A DNA stretch of 64,000 nucleotides from Candidatus Latescibacterota bacterium (GCA_965208105.1 OZ242318.1:1056001-1120000), one strand, 5' to 3'; shown: positions 3,202 to 24,825, counted from the first letter of the stretch. Made by a program: numbers and translations. The notes: a model not told the origin generated them from the sequence alone.

Positions 3202-3648
3202 CTAACGGGCATCTGCCTCATCCAGGGCCTCCCCGAGCGCCTGCGCCAACCCGTCGGGATCGTCCGTCCCAATCCTGCACGTTTTGCCGTTCCTCATCAG
3301 AAGTTCAATCGCCGAGCGCCCGTATATGCTGTAAAGCCAGCCGCGCGGCGTGTATCGAATTCCCCAGCCGTAGTACCACGGATTCACCACTTTCGCGTAG
3401 GACTCGACTTCGCTTAGCTGAATGCGTTTACGGATGACTCCCACCCCGAATTGAACCGCAATAACCCCGCCGCCGACCCTTACCGTCAAGCTCGAGAACA
3501 GTGCCAGCAATATGAGCATGACAATCAGGGGAATCAAAGTAGCCGGTTTAAATTCCGAGAAGATATTTGAACAGACTAAAAACAGGACGACAGCGCTGTA
3601 CGCGATCAGGTGTATGTAACCAACTTGGGTGTGTTCGTATTCTTTCAT
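3202..3648 (-). CDS. Small membrane protein (two TM helices plus PH-like cytoplasmic domain)
   Basis: YEHTQVG start, two hydrophobic stretches, WYYGWGIRY...IGTDDP conserved-looking motifs. Confidence 0.7.
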   Translation of the reverse strand: MKEYEHTQVGYIHLIAYSAVVLFLVCSNIFSEFKPATLIPLIVMLILLALFSSLTVRVGGGVIAVQFGVGVIRKRIQLSEVESYAKVVNPWYYGWGIRYTPRGWLYSIYGRSAIELLMRNGKTCRIGTDDPDGLAQALGEALDEADAR

Positions 3649-3703
3649 CAACTCCCAACGCTTTTCCTAGGTTCCTTCTCTCCGTGCCAATTCGTACGGC
3701 GGC

Positions 3704-4795
3704 TCAGAGTAGAATCATCCCACGGGCGACTTTCCCTTCCAGCATGTCGTCAAAAGCTTCGTTCACTTCCTCCAACCGATATGTTCGGGTGATTAATTCG
3801 TCCAGCTTGAGGACGCCGGCGCGATACAGTCCAAGCAGGCGCGGCATATCGTATCGAGATCGAGATGATCCGTAACAACACCCTTTGACCGTTTTCTCGT
3901 CCCAGAAGACCACTCCCGGGTCAAGATCAAGCGGCTCGCGCGGAGGTGCGCCCACCCAGACAGCCGTTCCTCCACGCCGGATTGCGTGCACCACCTGCTC
4001 GTAAGTTGTGCGCGTGCCTATGGCTTCAAACGCATACTCGACGCCTAATCCATCGGTCAAAGCGCGAATCTCCTCTACCGGATCAACCTCGTCCGCATTG
4101 ACCGTATGCGTGGCGCCAAACTCCAAGGAAAGTGCCAGTTTCGACTCGAGCAGATCGACCGCGACGATTTTCGCCGCGCCCGCAATGGCAGCCCCTTGAA
4201 TCACATTCAAGCCGATACCGCCCGCACCAAACACGGCGACGCTGCTGCCAGGACGCACCTGCGCGGTGTTGGTCGCGGCACACACCCCGGTCGTAACACT
4301 GCAGCCAATCAGCGCAGCCTTGTCCAGTGGAATATCCCGATCAATGGGCACCGCACAGGATTCGGGAATCACACTGTACTCGGCGAAAGAAGCCACCGTG
4401 GCAAAGTGATGAATGGATTTCCCGTTTTTCTTGTAACGCGTCGTGCCGTCCGCCAGGAATCCCTTCTTTTTCTTGCGTGCCGTCAAACAAAGATTGGAGC
4501 GGCCCTCGGCGCAGTAGGTGCAATGACCGCAGGACTCCATCCATGAAAGAATGACGTGGTCCCCGGGTTTTACCAACGTGACTCCCTTGCCGACCTCCTC
4601 AACCACACCCGCCCCTTCATCGCCCAGCACCGTAGGCAATGGAGGATCGAGCAGTCCGGTGACAACATGGTAGCAGCTATGGCACACGCCCGTAGCTGCC
4701 ATCTTGACGAGCACCTCCCTCTCTTTCGGAGCTTCCATCTCAATATCTTCGACGACAACTGGTTGATTCTGTTCGTACAAGACTGCGGCTTTCAT
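3704..4795 (-). CDS. Zn-dependent alcohol dehydrogenase (class III-like MDR)
   Basis: GVCHS, GDEGAG, CGHCTYC...C structural Zn, GAGGIG NAD motif. Confidence 0.92.
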   Translation of the reverse strand: MKAAVLYEQNQPVVVEDIEMEAPKEREVLVKMAATGVCHSCYHVVTGLLDPPLPTVLGDEGAGVVEEVGKGVTLVKPGDHVILSWMESCGHCTYCAEGRSNLCLTARKKKKGFLADGTTRYKKNGKSIHHFATVASFAEYSVIPESCAVPIDRDIPLDKAALIGCSVTTGVCAATNTAQVRPGSSVAVFGAGGIGLNVIQGAAIAGAAKIVAVDLLESKLALSLEFGATHTVNADEVDPVEEIRALTDGLGVEYAFEAIGTRTTYEQVVHAIRRGGTAVWVGAPPREPLDLDPGVVFWDEKTVKGCCYGSSRSRYDMPRLLGLYRAGVLKLDELITRTYRLEEVNEAFDDMLEGKVARGMILL

Positions 4796-19276: not shown

Positions 19277-20392
19277 CTAACGCACGAAGGACCGCTGAAT
19301 CTCCTCGGGCGTCCGGTGGGAATACTCGAACGCATCTATATCCAGTATCGGATGAGCCGCGGCGATCGACTCATCCACGTCGCATCCAAGGCCGGGAGCC
19401 TCGGGCACGAGGATAGCGCCCCCTTCTTCCTGGATGCATCCCGGCGCCACGTCGTATCGCCAGGGGACGTCATCCGCCTTGTGTTCGAGGAAGATGCAGT
19501 TGGGGATCGACGCGAGCACGTGCAGGTTCGCCATCTCGATGATCGGCCCCACGGAGCCGTCGTGAGGGGCCACGGTCACCGATTGGGCCTCGGCCATGGC
19601 CGCCAACTTCTTGAGCTCGGTGATCCCGCCCAGGCGGGTAGTCTCCGGCTGCACGATATCCACCAGGTTGCGCGCCAGCAGCTCCGAAAAGGCCCACTTG
19701 GTCGCGAAACGCTCTCCCGTTGCCAGTGGAACCGCGACCTTCTCAGCAACCTTCGCGAAAGCCTCGACATTCTCCGGCACCACGGGGTCCTCCAGAAACA
19801 TGGGACGGTACGGCTCGCATCCCCGTCCGAGCTGGATGGCGGCGGACGGGGTCATTTCCGCGTGACAGTGAACGCCGATCTCCACCTCGTATCCCACCGC
19901 CTCGCGCAAGCTTTTAATCGTTTCGATCTTCGGCCCGCACTTGAAGAACCTGTAGCCGCGATCGATCAGCCTCTCCGCCTCCGCCGGCGTGCTGGCGTGA
20001 CCGTACACCGGAATTCTGTCCCGCATCTTGCCGCCCAACAGCTCCCAGACCGGAACGCCGAGCGCCTTGCCCTTTATGTCCCACAGGGCACAGTCGAGAG
20101 CGCTGATCATCCCACCACGCACCGACCCCGTTACCCCGTGACCGTGCAGGATATCGTAGAGCCTGAGCCAGAGTCTTTCGATCTGGAAGGGGTTTTCGCC
20201 GATCACGAAGTGTTTCATCTCCTGGATCGCCTTCTCCACGATAAACGGCCAGCCGCCTCCTTCGCCTACGCCGGTCACGCCCTCGTCGGTGAAAACCTTG
20301 ACGAACAACCAGTTCCGTCCACGGGGGCGCGAGTTCATCGACGAACCCTCGTTCGCGTTGACCAGATAGGTTTTAACATCGGTGATCTTCAT
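19277..20392 (-). CDS. Mandelate racemase/galactonate dehydratase-like enolase-superfamily enzyme
   Basis: MKITDVK, TDEGVTGVGE, ALWDIKGKALGVPVWELLGG, FLEDP, ATGER, GGITE, APH. Confidence 0.9.
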   Translation of the reverse strand: MKITDVKTYLVNANEGSSMNSRPRGRNWLFVKVFTDEGVTGVGEGGGWPFIVEKAIQEMKHFVIGENPFQIERLWLRLYDILHGHGVTGSVRGGMISALDCALWDIKGKALGVPVWELLGGKMRDRIPVYGHASTPAEAERLIDRGYRFFKCGPKIETIKSLREAVGYEVEIGVHCHAEMTPSAAIQLGRGCEPYRPMFLEDPVVPENVEAFAKVAEKVAVPLATGERFATKWAFSELLARNLVDIVQPETTRLGGITELKKLAAMAEAQSVTVAPHDGSVGPIIEMANLHVLASIPNCIFLEHKADDVPWRYDVAPGCIQEEGGAILVPEAPGLGCDVDESIAAAHPILDIDAFEYSHRTPEEIQRSFVR

Positions 20393-20447
20393 GCTGGTGG
20401 TCTCCTTATTTCATGCAACCGTCGGACTTGGGTGTTGTTAATTCTTC

Positions 20448-20537
20448 GCATATCGTTTTCACGGTTTACGAACCCACGAAGTGGGTTGCCGCAGGCCAAG
20501 GGGCGAATGCCCCGCAGCGTAAATGGATGTGATATAT
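20448..20537 (-). repeat. attC-like site 5 (GAT cores at both ends)
   Basis: Plus strand gcatatc-gttttca-cggtttacg-aacccac gaa gtgggtt-gccgcaggccaa-ggggc gaat gcccc-gcag-cgtaaatgg-atgt-gatatat. Confidence 0.8.
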
Positions 20538-20604
20538 GAAATGGGACTCTTCATTACCTGTACCAGAGCTCTACTGCTGGAGCTGCCGGGGAGGGTGCCG
20601 AGCA

Positions 20605-21261
20605 TCAGTCGTGGTGGCGTTTGTAATAATGTCTGATCTTTGGGTCGCGGAAGCGAACGACCGTGTTGTGGCCCCAAACGGCCAAGCCAACTGCACCGCG
20701 CGACTCCCCAGGCAGCGTCAACCGATTGACCAATACACCGTTCACGTAGCTGGTCACTGAGCGATCACGGACCTTGAGGACAATGTCATATTCGCGACCA
20801 GGCTCCATAACGAAATCAACGACATCGAGTTTGACATCCTCACGAGTTTCCTCGTTCCGACGGACGACGACCATGGTCTTCCAACCCGTCAGGTATGTCA
20901 GGAAATGCGACGAAACACCGTCGTCGGAGATTCCAAATACGAGTTGCGGACCGGACCCCTTCTCAATGGTGGCCTGCACCTTGAATTCATAGGCAGCCCA
21001 GGTCCCATCTCCCTGGACAAGCCGCCCGCGGCTTGCCTGGCCCGTATCGGCAATGATGGCGTCGCCCTCGCGACGCCATACGGAAGGGGTGAAAGGGCCT
21101 TCACTGGCATGCCATCCGGCCAAGCCCTCACCCTCTACCATTGACTCCCACGGCTTGCCGATATCCGCTCGACCGTAGTCGTTCTCAAAGGAAGGAGTTC
21201 CGACAGCGGCACTCACTGTAGTTAGTAGGCCCAGGTAGATTGCGTAGTGAATTTTCTCCAT
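20605..21261 (-). CDS. Cassette 5: secreted DUF1080 / 3-keto-disaccharide hydrolase-like protein
   Basis: Signal peptide from MEKIHY (ATG 21261), W..M.EGEGLAGW...WRREGDAI...YEFKVQ...SYVNGVLV...GAVGLAVWG...VRFRDPKIR. Confidence 0.75.
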   Translation of the reverse strand: MEKIHYAIYLGLLTTVSAAVGTPSFENDYGRADIGKPWESMVEGEGLAGWHASEGPFTPSVWRREGDAIIADTGQASRGRLVQGDGTWAAYEFKVQATIEKGSGPQLVFGISDDGVSSHFLTYLTGWKTMVVVRRNEETREDVKLDVVDFVMEPGREYDIVLKVRDRSVTSYVNGVLVNRLTLPGESRGAVGLAVWGHNTVVRFRDPKIRHYYKRHHD

Positions 21262-21301
21262 TACATGGTCTCCGGTCGGTGATTCCGGTTCTTCCCATTT
21301 C

Positions 21302-21398
21302 ATATATCGTTCCGCCGGTTTGCAAACCCCGAGCTTGGCGAGGGGTTGCCGCAGGCCAAGGCGACGTAGCCGCCGAAGCACAAACCGTGCTGTTATAC
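21302..21398 (-). repeat. attC-like site 4
   Basis: Plus strand atatatc-gttccgc-cggtttgca-aacccc...ggggtt-gccgcaggccaa-ggcg...cgcc-gaag-cacaaaccg-tgct-gttatac. Confidence 0.85.
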
Positions 21399-21411
21399 GT
21401 CGTGATATTCA

Positions 21412-21879
21412 TTACTCTGTTGAATGCAACTCGTCTCTGATCCTACCACCAATCTCATTCATCTGATCTTCACTGACACTTTCCTCCTGAGAAACACCCA
21501 GATAAGCAAATACTCTAGTGCTTCGCCGGTCGGCCGGTTGATTAGCCATTCGAGGCACAATATGGAAGTGTACATGCGGATGATCCTTGGCCTCGGCAAA
21601 CTGGATCACATATGTTTTCACGCATCCGACTACAGCCTTAAGAGACAAGGAAACACGCCGAATCAAGGGCCCCAATTCTGCGGCTTCCTGCTCAGTGAGC
21701 TCATCAAGCGATTCGATGTGTCGTTGCAGAACCAACACCAGCCATCCGGGCAATGAGGTATCGAACGCATGCGCAACATCCCAGAACCTGGTCTGGTAAA
21801 TGCTGTCGTAAAGTGGCGCCTTCCCCAGCCTTCTTCGTGCAGTCAATTCGCACGTCTTGCACGTGTCACTACCGTTCAT
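21412..21879 (-). CDS. Cassette 4: HIT-family nucleotide hydrolase
   Basis: CKTC N-terminus, PGWLVLV, HVHFHIVPR triad; ATG 21879. Confidence 0.88.
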   Translation of the reverse strand: MNGSDTCKTCELTARRRLGKAPLYDSIYQTRFWDVAHAFDTSLPGWLVLVLQRHIESLDELTEQEAAELGPLIRRVSLSLKAVVGCVKTYVIQFAEAKDHPHVHFHIVPRMANQPADRRSTRVFAYLGVSQEESVSEDQMNEIGGRIRDELHSTE

Positions 21880-21907
21880 GTCCGACCTCTCATTGCATCT
21901 CCATGTC

Positions 21908-21996
21908 GTGTAACGTTCTGCCGGTTTGCGAACCTCGATGTGGTTGCCGAAGGCCAAGGGGCGGCAGCGCCTCAACGCAACACCGTGATTTTAGCG
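21908..21996 (-). repeat. attC-like site 3 (R'' mutated to CGCTAAA)
   Basis: Plus strand gtgtaac-gttctgc-cggtttgcg-aacc...ggtt-gccgaaggccaa-ggggcg gcag cgcctc-aa-cgcaacaccg-tgat-tttagcg. Confidence 0.82.
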
Positions 21997-22006
21997 GAAG
22001 TTTCAC

Positions 22007-22222
22007 TCAATTCAATAGATCGCGAAATTGCTCAACGGAAAGACCCGCGTCTCGAACAATTCCGCCCATTGTGAACGCATTGACCGGATTGCTTCGGGGA
22101 ATAGTCAAGATCCGGGTACCGTCACTCATGACGATGTGTTTACCCTGGCGAATTATCCGAAATCCAGCCTTTTCCAAGGCCCTTACGGCCCGCAGGTGAT
22201 TGACCTCTGGAATCTTGGGCAT
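22007..22222 (-). CDS. hicA: Cassette 3: HicA-family toxin
   Basis: MPKIP...AVRALEKAGF...QGKHIVM...TIPR...TMGGIVRDAGLSVEQFRDLL. Confidence 0.88.
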   Translation of the reverse strand: MPKIPEVNHLRAVRALEKAGFRIIRQGKHIVMSDGTRILTIPRSNPVNAFTMGGIVRDAGLSVEQFRDLLN

Positions 22223-22223
22223 C

Positions 22224-22421
22224 CTAAAGCGTCAGCTCCACCTCTTTGACTTGAGCGTCTCCTAGTAGTTCGTCGACCGCTGCAAGGTATTCGCGTATAG
22301 CCGCTTCGATGTTTGCAAGCGCTTCCGCCTCGGATGCACCTTGAGACCAACAACCGGGAAGCCCAGGAACAGAAACACTCCATCCCTCATCAGATTCGAG
22401 CAACGCGACTTTGTACTTCAT
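22224..22421 (-). CDS. hicB: Cassette 3: short HicB-family antitoxin (no DNA-binding domain)
   Basis: MKYKVAL...SVPGLPGCWSQG...EALANIEAAIREYL. Confidence 0.9.
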   Translation of the reverse strand: MKYKVALLESDEGWSVSVPGLPGCWSQGASEAEALANIEAAIREYLAAVDELLGDAQVKEVELTL

Positions 22422-22542
22422 TTCGACACCTTCCTTACTTGCGGCAATAGAGCACCATTTGCCAAATGAGGATCATAATTCAATAAATTCTTGCGAACTT
22501 CCGTGCATCACGGCGATGTAAGAATTTTCCACGTCCTATTTC

Positions 22543-22637
22543 CGCTAACGTTTCGCCGGTTTGCGAACCTGGCGCAGCCAGGTTGCTGAAAGCCAAGCCG
22601 CCTGAAGGGCGGCGTAGCGAAAACCGGTGTGTTATGT
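22543..22637 (-). repeat. attC-like site 2
   Basis: Plus strand cgctaac-gtttcgc-cggtttgcg-aacctggc gca gccaggtt-gctgaaagccaa-gccgcc tgaag ggcggc-gtag-cgaaaaccg-gtgt-gttatgt. Confidence 0.87.
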
Positions 22638-22644
22638 GCCGTGC

Positions 22645-23493
22645 CTACCCAACGTACGCTCGCCCAGATGATGTTTTCGAATGATCGGATTCCAGGGAAA
22701 TTTGAGTGATGGTGTCGTGGGCGCGTCCCGTGCGGTCATGGTGCACATACACGATGTCGTCAATGACGATTCGCCGATTACCCGGATACTTGCAGGTCAA
22801 GTCCCCGCCCCGGAAATACTGCCCATCATAGCGCCGGAAGAAGACGGTCCTTCCTCCTTCTTCAACGAAGGCTTCCACGAGCTCTCCACCGTTTGGTGAG
22901 GACAAGCCGGGTATGGGATCCAAGATACGAATACAACAAAACCTGTTGTCGCCGATAGTCACATCGTAGGTACCAGCACCGAGACCTTGCGCATCGGTCG
23001 TCTTGTAGGCGCCATCACTCAGGCGTTCGTACCGCCCATCGTCAACTATTCGACGATTCATAGAACCGCCCCAGTTGGCTTCGAAGGTCCTGTCGCCCAG
23101 CAATTCGAACACGCGTCTCCCACGCAAAGTCTTGACCACTCCAACCCATCGGGCACCCTGGTCGTCCAACAGTGCGTACATGTACCCGGGATTGAATTCT
23201 GTTGGCCAGTCCTTCCGATTTGCATACTCTTGCAATCGAAGCTCGACACAATCTGTGTCACGGAGCCTTGCTGGACCCACGGACACGATTTCGGTAACCC
23301 CTGTTAGCTGGAGCGTATCCGATTCATACGCGGCCCACATGCAGTGTTCCCCCAGCCTAGGTACGGCAAACCACCACTGTAGCTCCGGGCAGCCGACTTC
23401 GTCTACTCTCTCGCAACTTTCCTCGATCGTGACCTCAGGCCGCGTCAATGGAAACCCACGACTCGTCGCGTTGCTGGCGTTCTCAGGATTCAT
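22645..23493 (-). CDS. Cassette 2: hypothetical protein (282 aa)
   Basis: ATG 23493 with RBS GGAG; ORF fills the space between two attC-like sites; no family recognised. Confidence 0.75.
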   Translation of the reverse strand: MNPENASNATSRGFPLTRPEVTIEESCERVDEVGCPELQWWFAVPRLGEHCMWAAYESDTLQLTGVTEIVSVGPARLRDTDCVELRLQEYANRKDWPTEFNPGYMYALLDDQGARWVGVVKTLRGRRVFELLGDRTFEANWGGSMNRRIVDDGRYERLSDGAYKTTDAQGLGAGTYDVTIGDNRFCCIRILDPIPGLSSPNGGELVEAFVEEGGRTVFFRRYDGQYFRGGDLTCKYPGNRRIVIDDIVYVHHDRTGRAHDTITQISLESDHSKTSSGRAYVG

Positions 23494-23549
23494 GATGGGA
23501 TCTCCGATATCGCCTTGGGAGGTCGATGTCTGTGTGCTTCTGGCATGCC

Positions 23550-23646
23550 GCCTAACGTTTCGCCGGTTTGCGAACCCCGAGCTTGGCGAGGGGGTTGCCG
23601 CAAGCCAAGGCGCGCAAGCGCCGAAGCGCAAACCGTGCTGTTAGAT
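23550..23646 (-). repeat. attC-like site 1
   Basis: Minus strand ATCTAAC-AGCA-CGGTTTGCG...CGCAAACCG-GCGAAAC-GTTAGGC; perfect RYYYAAC and GTTRRRY cores. Confidence 0.9.
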
Positions 23647-23670
23647 GAAGCTCTCTCAGAAGTCAGATCT

Positions 23671-24042
23671 TTACGCGTCAATGGCTTCACGTGTAACGGA
23701 TGGTTCGAAAAAACGCTCCTGGAACTCCGTCAAAGCCAGGATCTGCTCGTCTGAGTAGTCTCTACCGGCAGGTACGACAATGAGCTTATCATCATCGTCG
23801 TCCGATCGTTGAATGACGGCGATACATCTGCCTGTAAAAGCCTCTATCGGTTTGAAGACACCCAGGATATAGGCGTCCATATTTTCTCCGTCAGGCGCCG
23901 GAACGTCCGGAAGAAATCCGTAGTTGACAGGATAGATGAAGCCCGCTTCAGGATGCCTGGAGCCAAGGGGTCGATCAATCGTAAGATCGACCATTTCTCC
24001 GATGAACTTCCTTGCATCCACGAAATTCTCCGTCATGGTCAT
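23671..24042 (-). CDS. Cassette 1: small inorganic pyrophosphatase-family protein
   Basis: IDRPLGSRHP...YPVNYG...DGENMDAYILG...DDDDKLIV...FQERFF. Confidence 0.85.
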   Translation of the reverse strand: MTMTENFVDARKFIGEMVDLTIDRPLGSRHPEAGFIYPVNYGFLPDVPAPDGENMDAYILGVFKPIEAFTGRCIAVIQRSDDDDDKLIVVPAGRDYSDEQILALTEFQERFFEPSVTREAIDA

Positions 24043-24089
24043 TTAATCTCCCAGCCATGTTGAAGTGAGGCAACGCTGCTCCGAGTTTC

Positions 24090-24126
24090 ATCTAACTGCC
24101 TATATGCGAACCATGGTTTCGCATAA
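24090..24126 (-). other. attI-like attachment site
   Basis: Minus strand TTATGCGAAAC-CAT-GGTTCGCATAT-AGGCA-GTTAGAT; R box GTTAGAT starts cassette 1; no attC-type hairpin upstream. Confidence 0.75.
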
Positions 24127-24378
24127 TGGCCTCCAAGTGCTGCTAATCTGAAACGAAGGTACCTATTGTCGAGAGCGGTCGCAACTAACGCCCACAATAC
24201 TTTAAATTCGCGTAACTCCTTTATATTTAAATAGATAAATCGATTCTTCATCGATTCTGTGCGACGACAACCGGTTCATCAGGAATCCTGCCGGACCCTT
24301 GCGTACTGTCCCAGCGAATTACATAGTACCGGGTACCGGTATCGGCGCCGAATTTTCATTCATTGAGGAGGAACTGGT

Positions 24379-24825
24379 ATGATCCGAGCCGTCACCTCGG
24401 AGGACATGATTGCTTGCGCACGTCTATTCGCGAAGGTCTTCTCCGAATGGCCGTACGAGGAATCGTGGACCATTGCCCAAGCCCACGACTACCTCGATCG
24501 GTTCTGGAGGTTCGATTCCGAGCATTGTCTCGTCGCTCTTGACAAAGATGAGGTTATCGGAGCGATGTTCGGATACTGCTACCCCTGGCAGAACAGAATC
24601 AACTACTACATGCAGGAGCTCTTTGTCGAGGCGGATCGGCGGCGGTCGGGCCATGGTCGAAAGCTGGTGCGCCATCTGCTCGACGGGCTTGGAGAATCAG
24701 GTACATCCATGTCCCTGATCGCCAATGAGGCAACGCCGGCTGCCGCCTTCTACCAGGAGCTTGGACTGCGGCAGCATAGATACTACAAGTTCTACTGTGG
24801 TACGGTGAACAGGGGCGACGAGTAG
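24379..24825 (+). CDS. GNAT-family N-acetyltransferase
   Basis: VFSEWPYEESW, ELFVEADRRRSGHGRKL motif A, AAAFYQELG; RBS GAGGAGG. Confidence 0.88.
   Translation: MIRAVTSEDMIACARLFAKVFSEWPYEESWTIAQAHDYLDRFWRFDSEHCLVALDKDEVIGAMFGYCYPWQNRINYYMQELFVEADRRRSGHGRKLVRHLLDGLGESGTSMSLIANEATPAAAFYQELGLRQHRYYKFYCGTVNRGDE

Follow-up and report, generated by a model that had tools for sequence, protein, structure and literature searches.

The 64,000-nt stretch of Candidatus Latescibacterota DNA analysed here (the window; G000:C1:1,056,001-1,120,000, from a genome, G000, assembled as a single contig of 4.85 Mb) contains an array of integron-type gene cassettes that ends in an attI site and has no integrase gene beside it. 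We consider it likely, with a probability of about 0.8, that this is a satellite integron array: a clustered set of attC sites without an integron integrase (CALIN) that has its own attI and is served in trans by an integrase encoded elsewhere. The array is bounded by a mandelate-racemase/enolase-type dehydratase gene (19277-20392, minus strand) and a GNAT acetyltransferase gene (24379-24825, plus strand). Between them lie six genes in five units, all co-oriented on the minus strand, and each unit, read on that strand, terminates in a related attC-type site of ~100 nt. Cassettes are numbered C1 to C5 from the attI leftwards and sites 1 to 5 from left to right (Table 1); the cut points fall at 20453|20454, 21307|21308, 21913|21914, 22548|22549, 23555|23556 and 24095|24096. 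A first-pass annotation of the window had picked out these units as integron-type cassettes (20445-24126) whose two ends rebuild an attachment site, without an adjoining integrase. That observation is confirmed, apart from the length of ~90 bp given to the sites. Its interpretation, in which a trans-acting enzyme stacked the cassettes into one solo site, is partly supported: a candidate integrase lies ~1 Mb away and cassettes differ at exact boundaries, but the site is not solo.

The attachment site at the right end has paralogues: G000 holds at least four attI copies, in the window and at 1,046,776, 2,061,051 and 2,751,285. Only the copy at 2,061,051 adjoins a recombinase gene. The related genome G001 holds at least four further copies. 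Six attI copies from the two genomes align over ~190 nt from the crossover and share a near-palindrome, TATGCGAACC-A(T)T-GGTTCGCATA, that lies 5 nt from the cut; the third arm noted by the first-pass annotation at 24116-24126 is present. Positions 23553-24249 of the window match 2,060,508-2,061,203, the last cassette and the spacer before the IntI-like gene at 2.06 Mb, at 92.7%. Because the L arm has TGCGAACC in common with the L region of the attC sites and resembles their extended R-box consensus (TTA-NNN-GAA), the attI looks like a double-stranded R-spacer-L site made from the family's own binding motif, with one extra inverted copy. This homology bears on the idea that an integrase placed the cassettes at an arbitrary, non-attI genomic position with a short GWT motif (attG-type insertion). 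The distal junction, G|AT, does fit the 5′-GWT-3′ consensus given for genome insertion sites (bioRxiv 10.1101/2022.09.11.507474). However, ~150-190 nt at the right end are homologous to the integrase-adjacent attI and the other copies, which marks the site as an attI paralogue and makes such an insertion highly improbable.

Comparison with the large array at 2.06 Mb suggests that the window attI has been used. Cassette C1 is duplicated in the attI-proximal slot of that main array. The two cassette bodies are 440/444 identical (99.1%) and their attC sites 87/96, whereas the attI flanks beside them agree at only 116/153 positions (75.8%) and the sequences left of the crossover at 16/56. Homology of C1 stops exactly at both crossover points. 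Since identity steps so sharply there, a near-identical cassette sits at two long-diverged attI copies.

Metagenomic contigs point in the same direction. A 1539-nt contig from sequencing run X5 joins 22157-22554 to 787 other letters and then to 24099-24462, and a 1347-nt contig from run X10 joins 21718-21934 to 779 other letters and then to 24099-24459. Both keep the window attI and the GNAT flank, reaching into the GNAT gene, and carry a different first cassette of ~780 nt. This is followed by hicBA (C3) in X5 and directly by the HIT cassette (C4), with C3 absent, in X10. Several metagenome contigs end at the borders of the pyrophosphatase cassette, and no contig compared from X5, X9 or X10 covers 22772-23305, within C2. 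Joints with a side shorter than 30 letters (20489-24119, 20501-23562, 20507-21371 and 21963-23617) were not counted, since attC sites recur. The exact-boundary differences at the window site imply insertion or exchange after the site had lost its neighbouring integrase, or at a site that never had one; we infer that the solo copy has been in use.

The same-genus genome G001 shows what the locus can look like with an integrase. There, ~13 kb of genes and sites come after the orthologous dehydratase gene (97% identical), and then an attI and an IntI-like gene that is intact, placing the integrase at the dehydratase locus itself. The first-pass annotation had named an intI beside this site in a relative as the sign of an ordinary integron that lost its integrase, and G001 provides one. 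The five cassettes could be a static remnant, the fossil of a chromosomal integron that was split or lost its integrase by rearrangement, with no later recombination. Besides the G001 locus, this fits the truncated integrase beside another G001 attI (locus L055, G001:C1:3,757,500-3,762,500), where ~3541-3710 holds an attI with a single cassette and only the first ~60 codons (~170 nt) of the integrase gene. It also fits the stop codon in the G000 integrase gene described below, and Cury 2016 names rearrangement and intI loss among the origins of CALINs. We nevertheless think a purely static remnant unlikely, as it leaves unexplained both the break at the crossover between a 99.1% identical cassette and a 75.8% identical attI and the different first cassette at the same attI-GNAT junction in two other samples.

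Nor does the window attI look like the original site minus its gene. It is only ~79% identical to the G001 attI at the dehydratase locus, whereas the G000 attI and integrase gene at 2.06 Mb together are 91.9% identical to that locus, so the window copy is a paralogue on an old flank. L055 is a sign that solo attI copies may arise by duplication followed by truncation. The comparison of relatives proposed by the first-pass annotation turned up differing content, in X5 and X10, but no empty site; in G008 and G019 another gene lies upstream of the dehydratase gene, with no integron there. Three further observations concern these neighbourhoods. In G001, ~3.6 kb of minus-strand genes without recognisable sites separate the dehydratase gene from the first detected site (L051, 1767-5438), and part of this stretch matches G000 3,165,836-3,167,421 at 82%. 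G001 also has a second, partial short recombinase (G001:C1:170,132-170,623; model positions 13-179), with a site of the same family just past its 3′ end. To the left of the window in G000, an array of at least 11 sites (G000:C1:1,037,767-1,055,625) ends in the third attI, at 1,046,776. Two further sites lie at 1,053,780 and 1,055,528, the latter 375 bp before the window start, and ~20 kb of ordinary genes separate the left array from the five-cassette array, a layout similar to that in G001.

Which enzyme might serve the window site? Whole-genome profile and tblastn searches gave four tyrosine recombinase hits in G000, all outside 1,056,001-1,120,000; as the first-pass annotation had stated, the 64-kb window has no tyrosine recombinase, nor does it hold an intI fragment. 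The nearest candidate integrase is the one at 2.06 Mb, ~1 Mb from the window array and beside the paralogous attI, where its gene heads an array of ~50 kb and is divergent from it. The TIGR02249 match to this gene (2,061,312-2,062,121) is split, covering model positions 2-179 and then 235-315. Its intact G001 orthologue, P0001 (312 aa, 91% identical), scores 230.7 bits against a curated cut-off of 265, compared with 465.5 bits for the canonical IntI of G020. Identity of P0001 is 40% and 44% with two canonical IntI proteins from related genomes, 31% with XerD and 27% with XerC. Relative to those two IntI proteins the enzyme has gaps of ~29 and 10 residues, and TIGR02249 positions 180-234 are unmatched: the IntI-specific insertion is missing. 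The closest PDB match is VchIntIA (2a3v, 158.5 bits), in which 59 chain residues stand opposite 17 of the query. The search for an IntI-specific insertion among the recombinases of the genome, suggested by the first-pass annotation, therefore ends with an IntI-like enzyme that lacks it and falls below the TIGR02249 cut-off. The extra domain of integron integrases, near patch III, grips flipped-out attC bases; IntI is defined by it, and software finds IntI through it. The short family consists of PF13495 plus PF00589 and is large, with 7981 relatives at E ≤1e-20 among 8000 scored. A quick tree of 36 rows, from which one 147-aa row was dropped and in which the IntI_G009 row is unreliable, did not settle whether this family is sister to IntI.

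The attC-type sites form a well-defined family. The five window sites have a mean column identity of 75%; on the plus strand they start YTAAC-G and finish TGTTA, and the core sites R′′ (RYYYAAC) and R′ (GTTRRRY) are canonical in all except site 1. A covariance model for such sites, R1, matches at least 73 sites in several arrays of G000 (150 of 1536 candidates scored), and nhmmer finds 66 matches of the same family. Across the genome, the cut is followed by T (39/42), T (42/42) and A (41/42). Cassettes mostly begin TTA-NNN-GAA-ATG or TTA-NNN-GAA-CATG, with A, T and G at positions 10-12 in 35, 28 and 24 of 42 cases; on this pattern, the R stem is ~12 bp and may provide an ATG. The first-pass annotation had reported that each cassette starts with a match to its own far end, and its strings and coordinates are correct, including the weakness of C2. 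The match is 15/16 for C5; nine leading identities and 12/16 overall for C3; TTAGATGAA, nine leading after the G, for C1; 7/9 for C4; and TTA followed by 10/16 for C2. Complementarity of the start to the R′′ of the cassette's own site, the junction of the circle, is thus clear in four of five cassettes and weak for C2.

RNAalifold on the five window sites gives an R stem (TAACG/TGTTA), a 4-nt bulge, an L stem and three terminal hairpins. Over 49 sites from G000 and G001, in an alignment fitted to the R1 model, 90.6% of cells are standard pairs, compared with 76.3% in shuffles, and 23 of 31 pairs have changed on both sides. None of 500 shuffles reached any of five measures, and controls with the structure slid along the alignment pair at ≤44%. 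Compensatory change keeps the fold of these sites. Rfam contains no family that matches them, returning two chance-level hits only. The 4-nt pyrimidine bulge is conserved and lies on the arm opposite to a single unpaired base, which has a fixed place on the R′′-L′′ arm of the strand that we take as bottom (T 19, A 15, C 10, G 3, gap 2; n=49). In canonical attC sites, the extrahelical bases of the R′′-L′′ arm are a conserved G in L′′ and a T (Bouvier 2009).

Four features indicate that the minus strand is the top strand and the plus strand the bottom strand. All six genes precede their own site on the minus strand. The main array has the same site orientation, with the recombinase gene pointing away in the classical divergent layout. 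The duplicated pyrophosphatase unit is accompanied by the site that lies downstream on the minus strand. Finally, AAC is followed by G on the plus strand in 46 of 49 sites, as described for the R′ box (Bouvier 2009). The cumulative GC skew of G000 is lowest near 2.96 Mb and highest near 0.38 Mb, which puts the inferred bottom strand of most arrays on the leading-strand template, the array at 4.47-4.49 Mb being the exception. Such placement of the bottom strand is the rule for sedentary integrons.

Taken as a satellite array, the locus reads as follows. From the attI at 24096-24249 leftwards, with the minus strand as top, there are five promoter-less cassettes, each an open reading frame (ORF) or hicBA with its attC-type site, joined at AA|C on the plus (bottom) strand. 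Each site would fold from single-stranded DNA into the R stem, the 4-nt pyrimidine bulge, the L stem with its one unpaired base and the three terminal hairpins, and a tyrosine recombinase would exchange the attC bottom strand with attI. This enzyme would act in trans, and the only candidate in G000 is the IntI-like gene at 2.06 Mb. The satellite attI itself would have arisen by duplication or rearrangement of an integron head, and cassettes would later have been inserted or swapped there by the integrase in trans.

A further feature, highlighted by the first-pass annotation and exact as described, is that the two ends of the array rebuild a palindrome. TTCGCATAT at 20445-20453 is the exact reverse complement of 24102-24110, and joining 20453 to 24096 gives TTCGCATAT-6-ATATGCGAA, with 9-bp inverted arms around a 6-bp spacer. 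The classical model predicts such a palindrome if the virgin attI leaves its R half with the last site of an array. G000 has 6 and 7 occurrences of the two 9-mers against ~7 expected, and the naive odds for a match at the exact place are ~1e-6. Because the arm resembles the extended R-box consensus, the evidence is weaker than this figure: when position frequencies are taken from 41 other sites, none of them a match at ≥8/9, the odds become ~1e-3. The match is real but modest, and 20445-20453 is either the R half of the original attI or the beginning of a cassette since lost. In G001, homology ends 11 nt short of the arm, and that locus does not contain the 9-mer. The similar TTATGCGA next to the fourth attI was considered as an R half and rejected, since an ordinary cassette begins there, with a match to its own site.

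The palindrome had also suggested a link to Xer recombination, by which XerC/XerD or another recombinase, encoded near 399.6 kb, would insert units at a dif-like palindrome in the manner of integrative mobile elements exploiting Xer (IMEX). G000 does have XerC-like and XerD-like genes, the rebuilt site has 9-bp inverted arms and a 6-bp spacer, and its arm GTTTCGCATAA is similar to the XerC arm of E. coli. This likeness, proposed in the first-pass annotation, turned out to be weak. The candidate host dif, at 399,556 on the skew maximum, is asymmetric with other arms, CCCCATAA and TTATGTAAAT, so that the symmetric rebuilt site matches neither it nor the asymmetric 11-6-11 form of dif. The same attI adjoins an IntI-like gene in two genomes, its arms match the R-box consensus of the family, and the junctions fall at AA|C as in integrons. 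A Xer-driven element is scarcely credible on this evidence. The dif-like site itself (CCCCATAA-GATAAA-TTATGTAAAT, G000:C1:399,556-399,583) lies directly beside a gene for a 314-aa tyrosine recombinase (399,595-400,539) that is weakly XerC/D-like (126 bits), and the two may form a single-recombinase dif system or an integrated element.

Several points weigh against a satellite array in working order. The G000 integrase gene contains an in-frame TAA and tblastn finds no second copy of the gene in G000, so the system may be dead in this genome unless the stop is an assembly error. The recombinase is without the domain that defines IntI, and the 49 sites have no conserved extrahelical G in the L stem of the kind seen in canonical attC. 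Fitting the alignment to R1 biases the pair counts toward structure. The step from 99% to 76% identity at C1 could reflect gene conversion instead of site-specific insertion. The X5 and X10 contigs are metagenomic, so that other strains or arrays could contribute to them, and they cannot show rates. No attI-like R half, and hence no rebuilt palindrome, was seen at the distal ends inspected in other arrays, leaving the window as a single case. Finally, no sigma-70-like promoter or terminator was found in 23950-24450.

Set against known systems, the window array satisfies the definition of a CALIN, with five attC-type sites where at least two are asked for and no integron integrase within reach. 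It is not a complete integron, which has intI beside attI and the array: what comes after the attI here is an ~80-nt repeat and then a GNAT gene. As CALINs may, this small five-site array co-occurs with a large array, of the sedentary chromosomal type, in the same genome. It differs in retaining a recognisable attI, one of several paralogues, and in the turnover that population data show at the attI-proximal slot. Cury 2016, which defines CALINs, lists integrase loss, rearrangement and secondary insertion as their origins, allows that their cassettes may still be mobilised by an integrase, and notes that attI is usually not searched in them, since it is unknown for most integrons.

Canonical integrons share with this family the R′′/R′ cores RYYYAAC/GTTRRRY, the folding of the site into R and L stems below a branched tip, AA|C junctions, the G after AAC, cassettes made of an ORF and a site, and a divergent integrase. 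VchIntIA is the solved structure nearest to the recombinase of this family. Unlike them, the family has a recombinase that lacks the IntI-specific insertion (I2 helix region) and falls under the TIGR02249 cut-off, although it does stand beside an array, and its sites are unusually conserved in sequence, with the 4-nt pyrimidine bulge and no conserved extrahelical G. Compared with XerCD/dif and IMEX, the core site again has inverted arms with a 6-bp spacer, and the arms end GCATA(A/T), but it is symmetric where the candidate host dif is not, and the units have long folded sites and form arrays.

The association of the short recombinase with such sites extends to relatives. Of the 31 genomes searched, 17, with G000 included, have R1 sites, nine have a split, short-type TIGR02249 match, and three have a match above the cut-off. 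Four of the nine short-recombinase loci, taken with 1.5-kb flanks, have an upstream R1 site in divergent layout. The G001 locus, where the R1 site is 1.4 kb upstream and beyond the 1.5-kb locus, is a fifth case, so that R1 arrays lie beside the short recombinase in five of nine loci (G000, G001, G010, G014 and G016). With 10-kb flanks, the G008 locus has one R1 site, downstream and on the other strand, and those of G024 and G011 have none. Canonical IntI loci have R1 sites in 0/3 cases within 1.5 kb and 0/2 within 10 kb.

We also searched 80 loci containing homologues at 43-58% identity (812,572 bases) with R1. Twenty matches at E ≤1 were found in 12 loci, 13 of them, in 10 loci, at E ≤1e-3. 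Every one of the 20 is on the minus strand, at a position downstream of the recombinase gene. When filters were turned off for six of these loci, 19 of their 20 matches fell on the minus strand, and the remaining one, on the plus strand, overlaps a minus-strand match. In Desulfitobacterium sp. Sab5 (NZ_CP172056.1), the recombinase gene is directly followed by a TTCGCA...TGCGAA repeat and then by ten co-oriented ORFs with R1-like sites. Short recombinases with R1-like arrays were seen in Bacillota (Paenibacillus, Desulfitobacterium), Spirochaetota, Gemmatimonadota, Bacteroidia and one Micrarchaeota metagenome-assembled genome. From this pattern, the short family may be paired with cassette arrays more widely, which is to be taken as a lead and not as a survey. 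Loci such as those of Desulfitobacterium and Paenibacillus recall the ‘inverted integrase’ integrons in having co-oriented cassettes downstream of the recombinase. In that group the integrase is co-oriented with the cassettes, and the known members have the IntI-specific domain; the window family differs in its classical divergent layout.

The large arrays, several attI copies and exact-boundary cassette turnover of G000 are all tied to a recombinase without the IntI domain. More tentatively, and with somewhat less than even odds, these loci may represent an unrecognised integron class, run by a sister family of IntI that never had, or lost, the I2/additional domain. Such an enzyme would recognise sequence-conserved attC sites marked by an L box of TGCGAA type, a bulge of pyrimidines and a tip of three hairpins, and would serve several attI on one chromosome. 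A domain-based definition of IntI may then have produced many of the ‘CALINs’ as artefacts, along with the near-absence of integrons from Firmicutes. IntegronFinder 2.0 reported one complete integron and a few CALINs in Firmicutes, and the few intermediate recombinases in Cury 2016 had <3 sites. Our literature search found no paper on a domain-less integrase beside large arrays and nothing on multiple attI copies; supplementary files, among them Figure S1 of Cury 2016 and the four ‘intermediate’ recombinases in it, were outside that search and may bear on the former. The domain-less integrase family is a more novel lead than the window array itself. If the enzyme is active, cassette capture would not need the extra domain, a natural intermediate between Xer-type and integron-type recombination would exist, and arrays filed as integrase-less would be reclassified. 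Several docking sites can also be open to one integrase in a single genome, which alters how the expression of stockpiled cassettes could be organised.

Table 1 Features of the five-cassette array, in window coordinates
Feature	Position	Strand	Description
Distal R half, left of last crossover	20445-20453	-	G|ATATGCGAA on minus strand
attC-type site 1 (of C5)	20445-20543	+ (inferred bottom strand)	R1 98.9 bits; variant R box ATATATC/GATATAT
Cassette C5 (854 bp)	20454-21307	-	3-keto-disaccharide hydrolase/DUF1080-like ORF 20605-21261
attC-type site 2 (of C4)	21299-21404	+	R1 89.3 bits
Cassette C4 (606 bp)	21308-21913	-	HIT-family ORF 21412-21879
attC-type site 3 (of C3)	21905-22002	+	R1 83.7 bits
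Cassette C3 (635 bp)	21914-22548	-	hicB 22224-22421 and hicA 22007-22222, toxin-antitoxin pair
attC-type site 4 (of C2)	22540-22643	+	R1 90.7 bits
Cassette C2 (1007 bp)	22549-23555	-	Hypothetical 283-aa ORF 22645-23496
attC-type site 5 (of C1)	23547-23652	+	R1 106.5 bits
Cassette C1 (540 bp)	23556-24095	-	Short inorganic-pyrophosphatase-like ORF 23671-24042 (PF00719, E 3e-8)
attI copy	24096-24249	-	Crossover 24095|24096; L arm 24102-24112; inverted partner 24116-24126; near-palindrome, then ~120 nt conserved stretch
Repeated element, ~80 nt	24252-24331	+	Between attI and GNAT gene, in the place of an integrase gene; most copies with a TTGACA-like box

The cassette genes have ordinary accessory functions. 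The hicBA pair (22007-22421) forms one cassette in the same orientation as the others, and the 283-aa protein of C2 has no Pfam match, its protein-atlas matches being unnamed clusters only. G000 is a metagenome-assembled genome whose sequence recurs in sponge and marine metagenome runs, and there was no RNA dataset among the sequencing runs found to carry it. The repeat at 24252-24331 occupies the place expected of an integrase gene, after the attI, in the window, at the third G000 copy and at two G001 copies. It recurs in G000 at 4,338,027, 4,347,056, 4,360,204, 4,365,761, 4,366,810, 802,843 and 1,046,931, and has many copies in G001 and G010. These repeats, of ~80-100 nt, precede unrelated small genes, one of which starts like a PIN/VapC protein, and most of them contain TTGACA, ~17 nt and then CATAGT.

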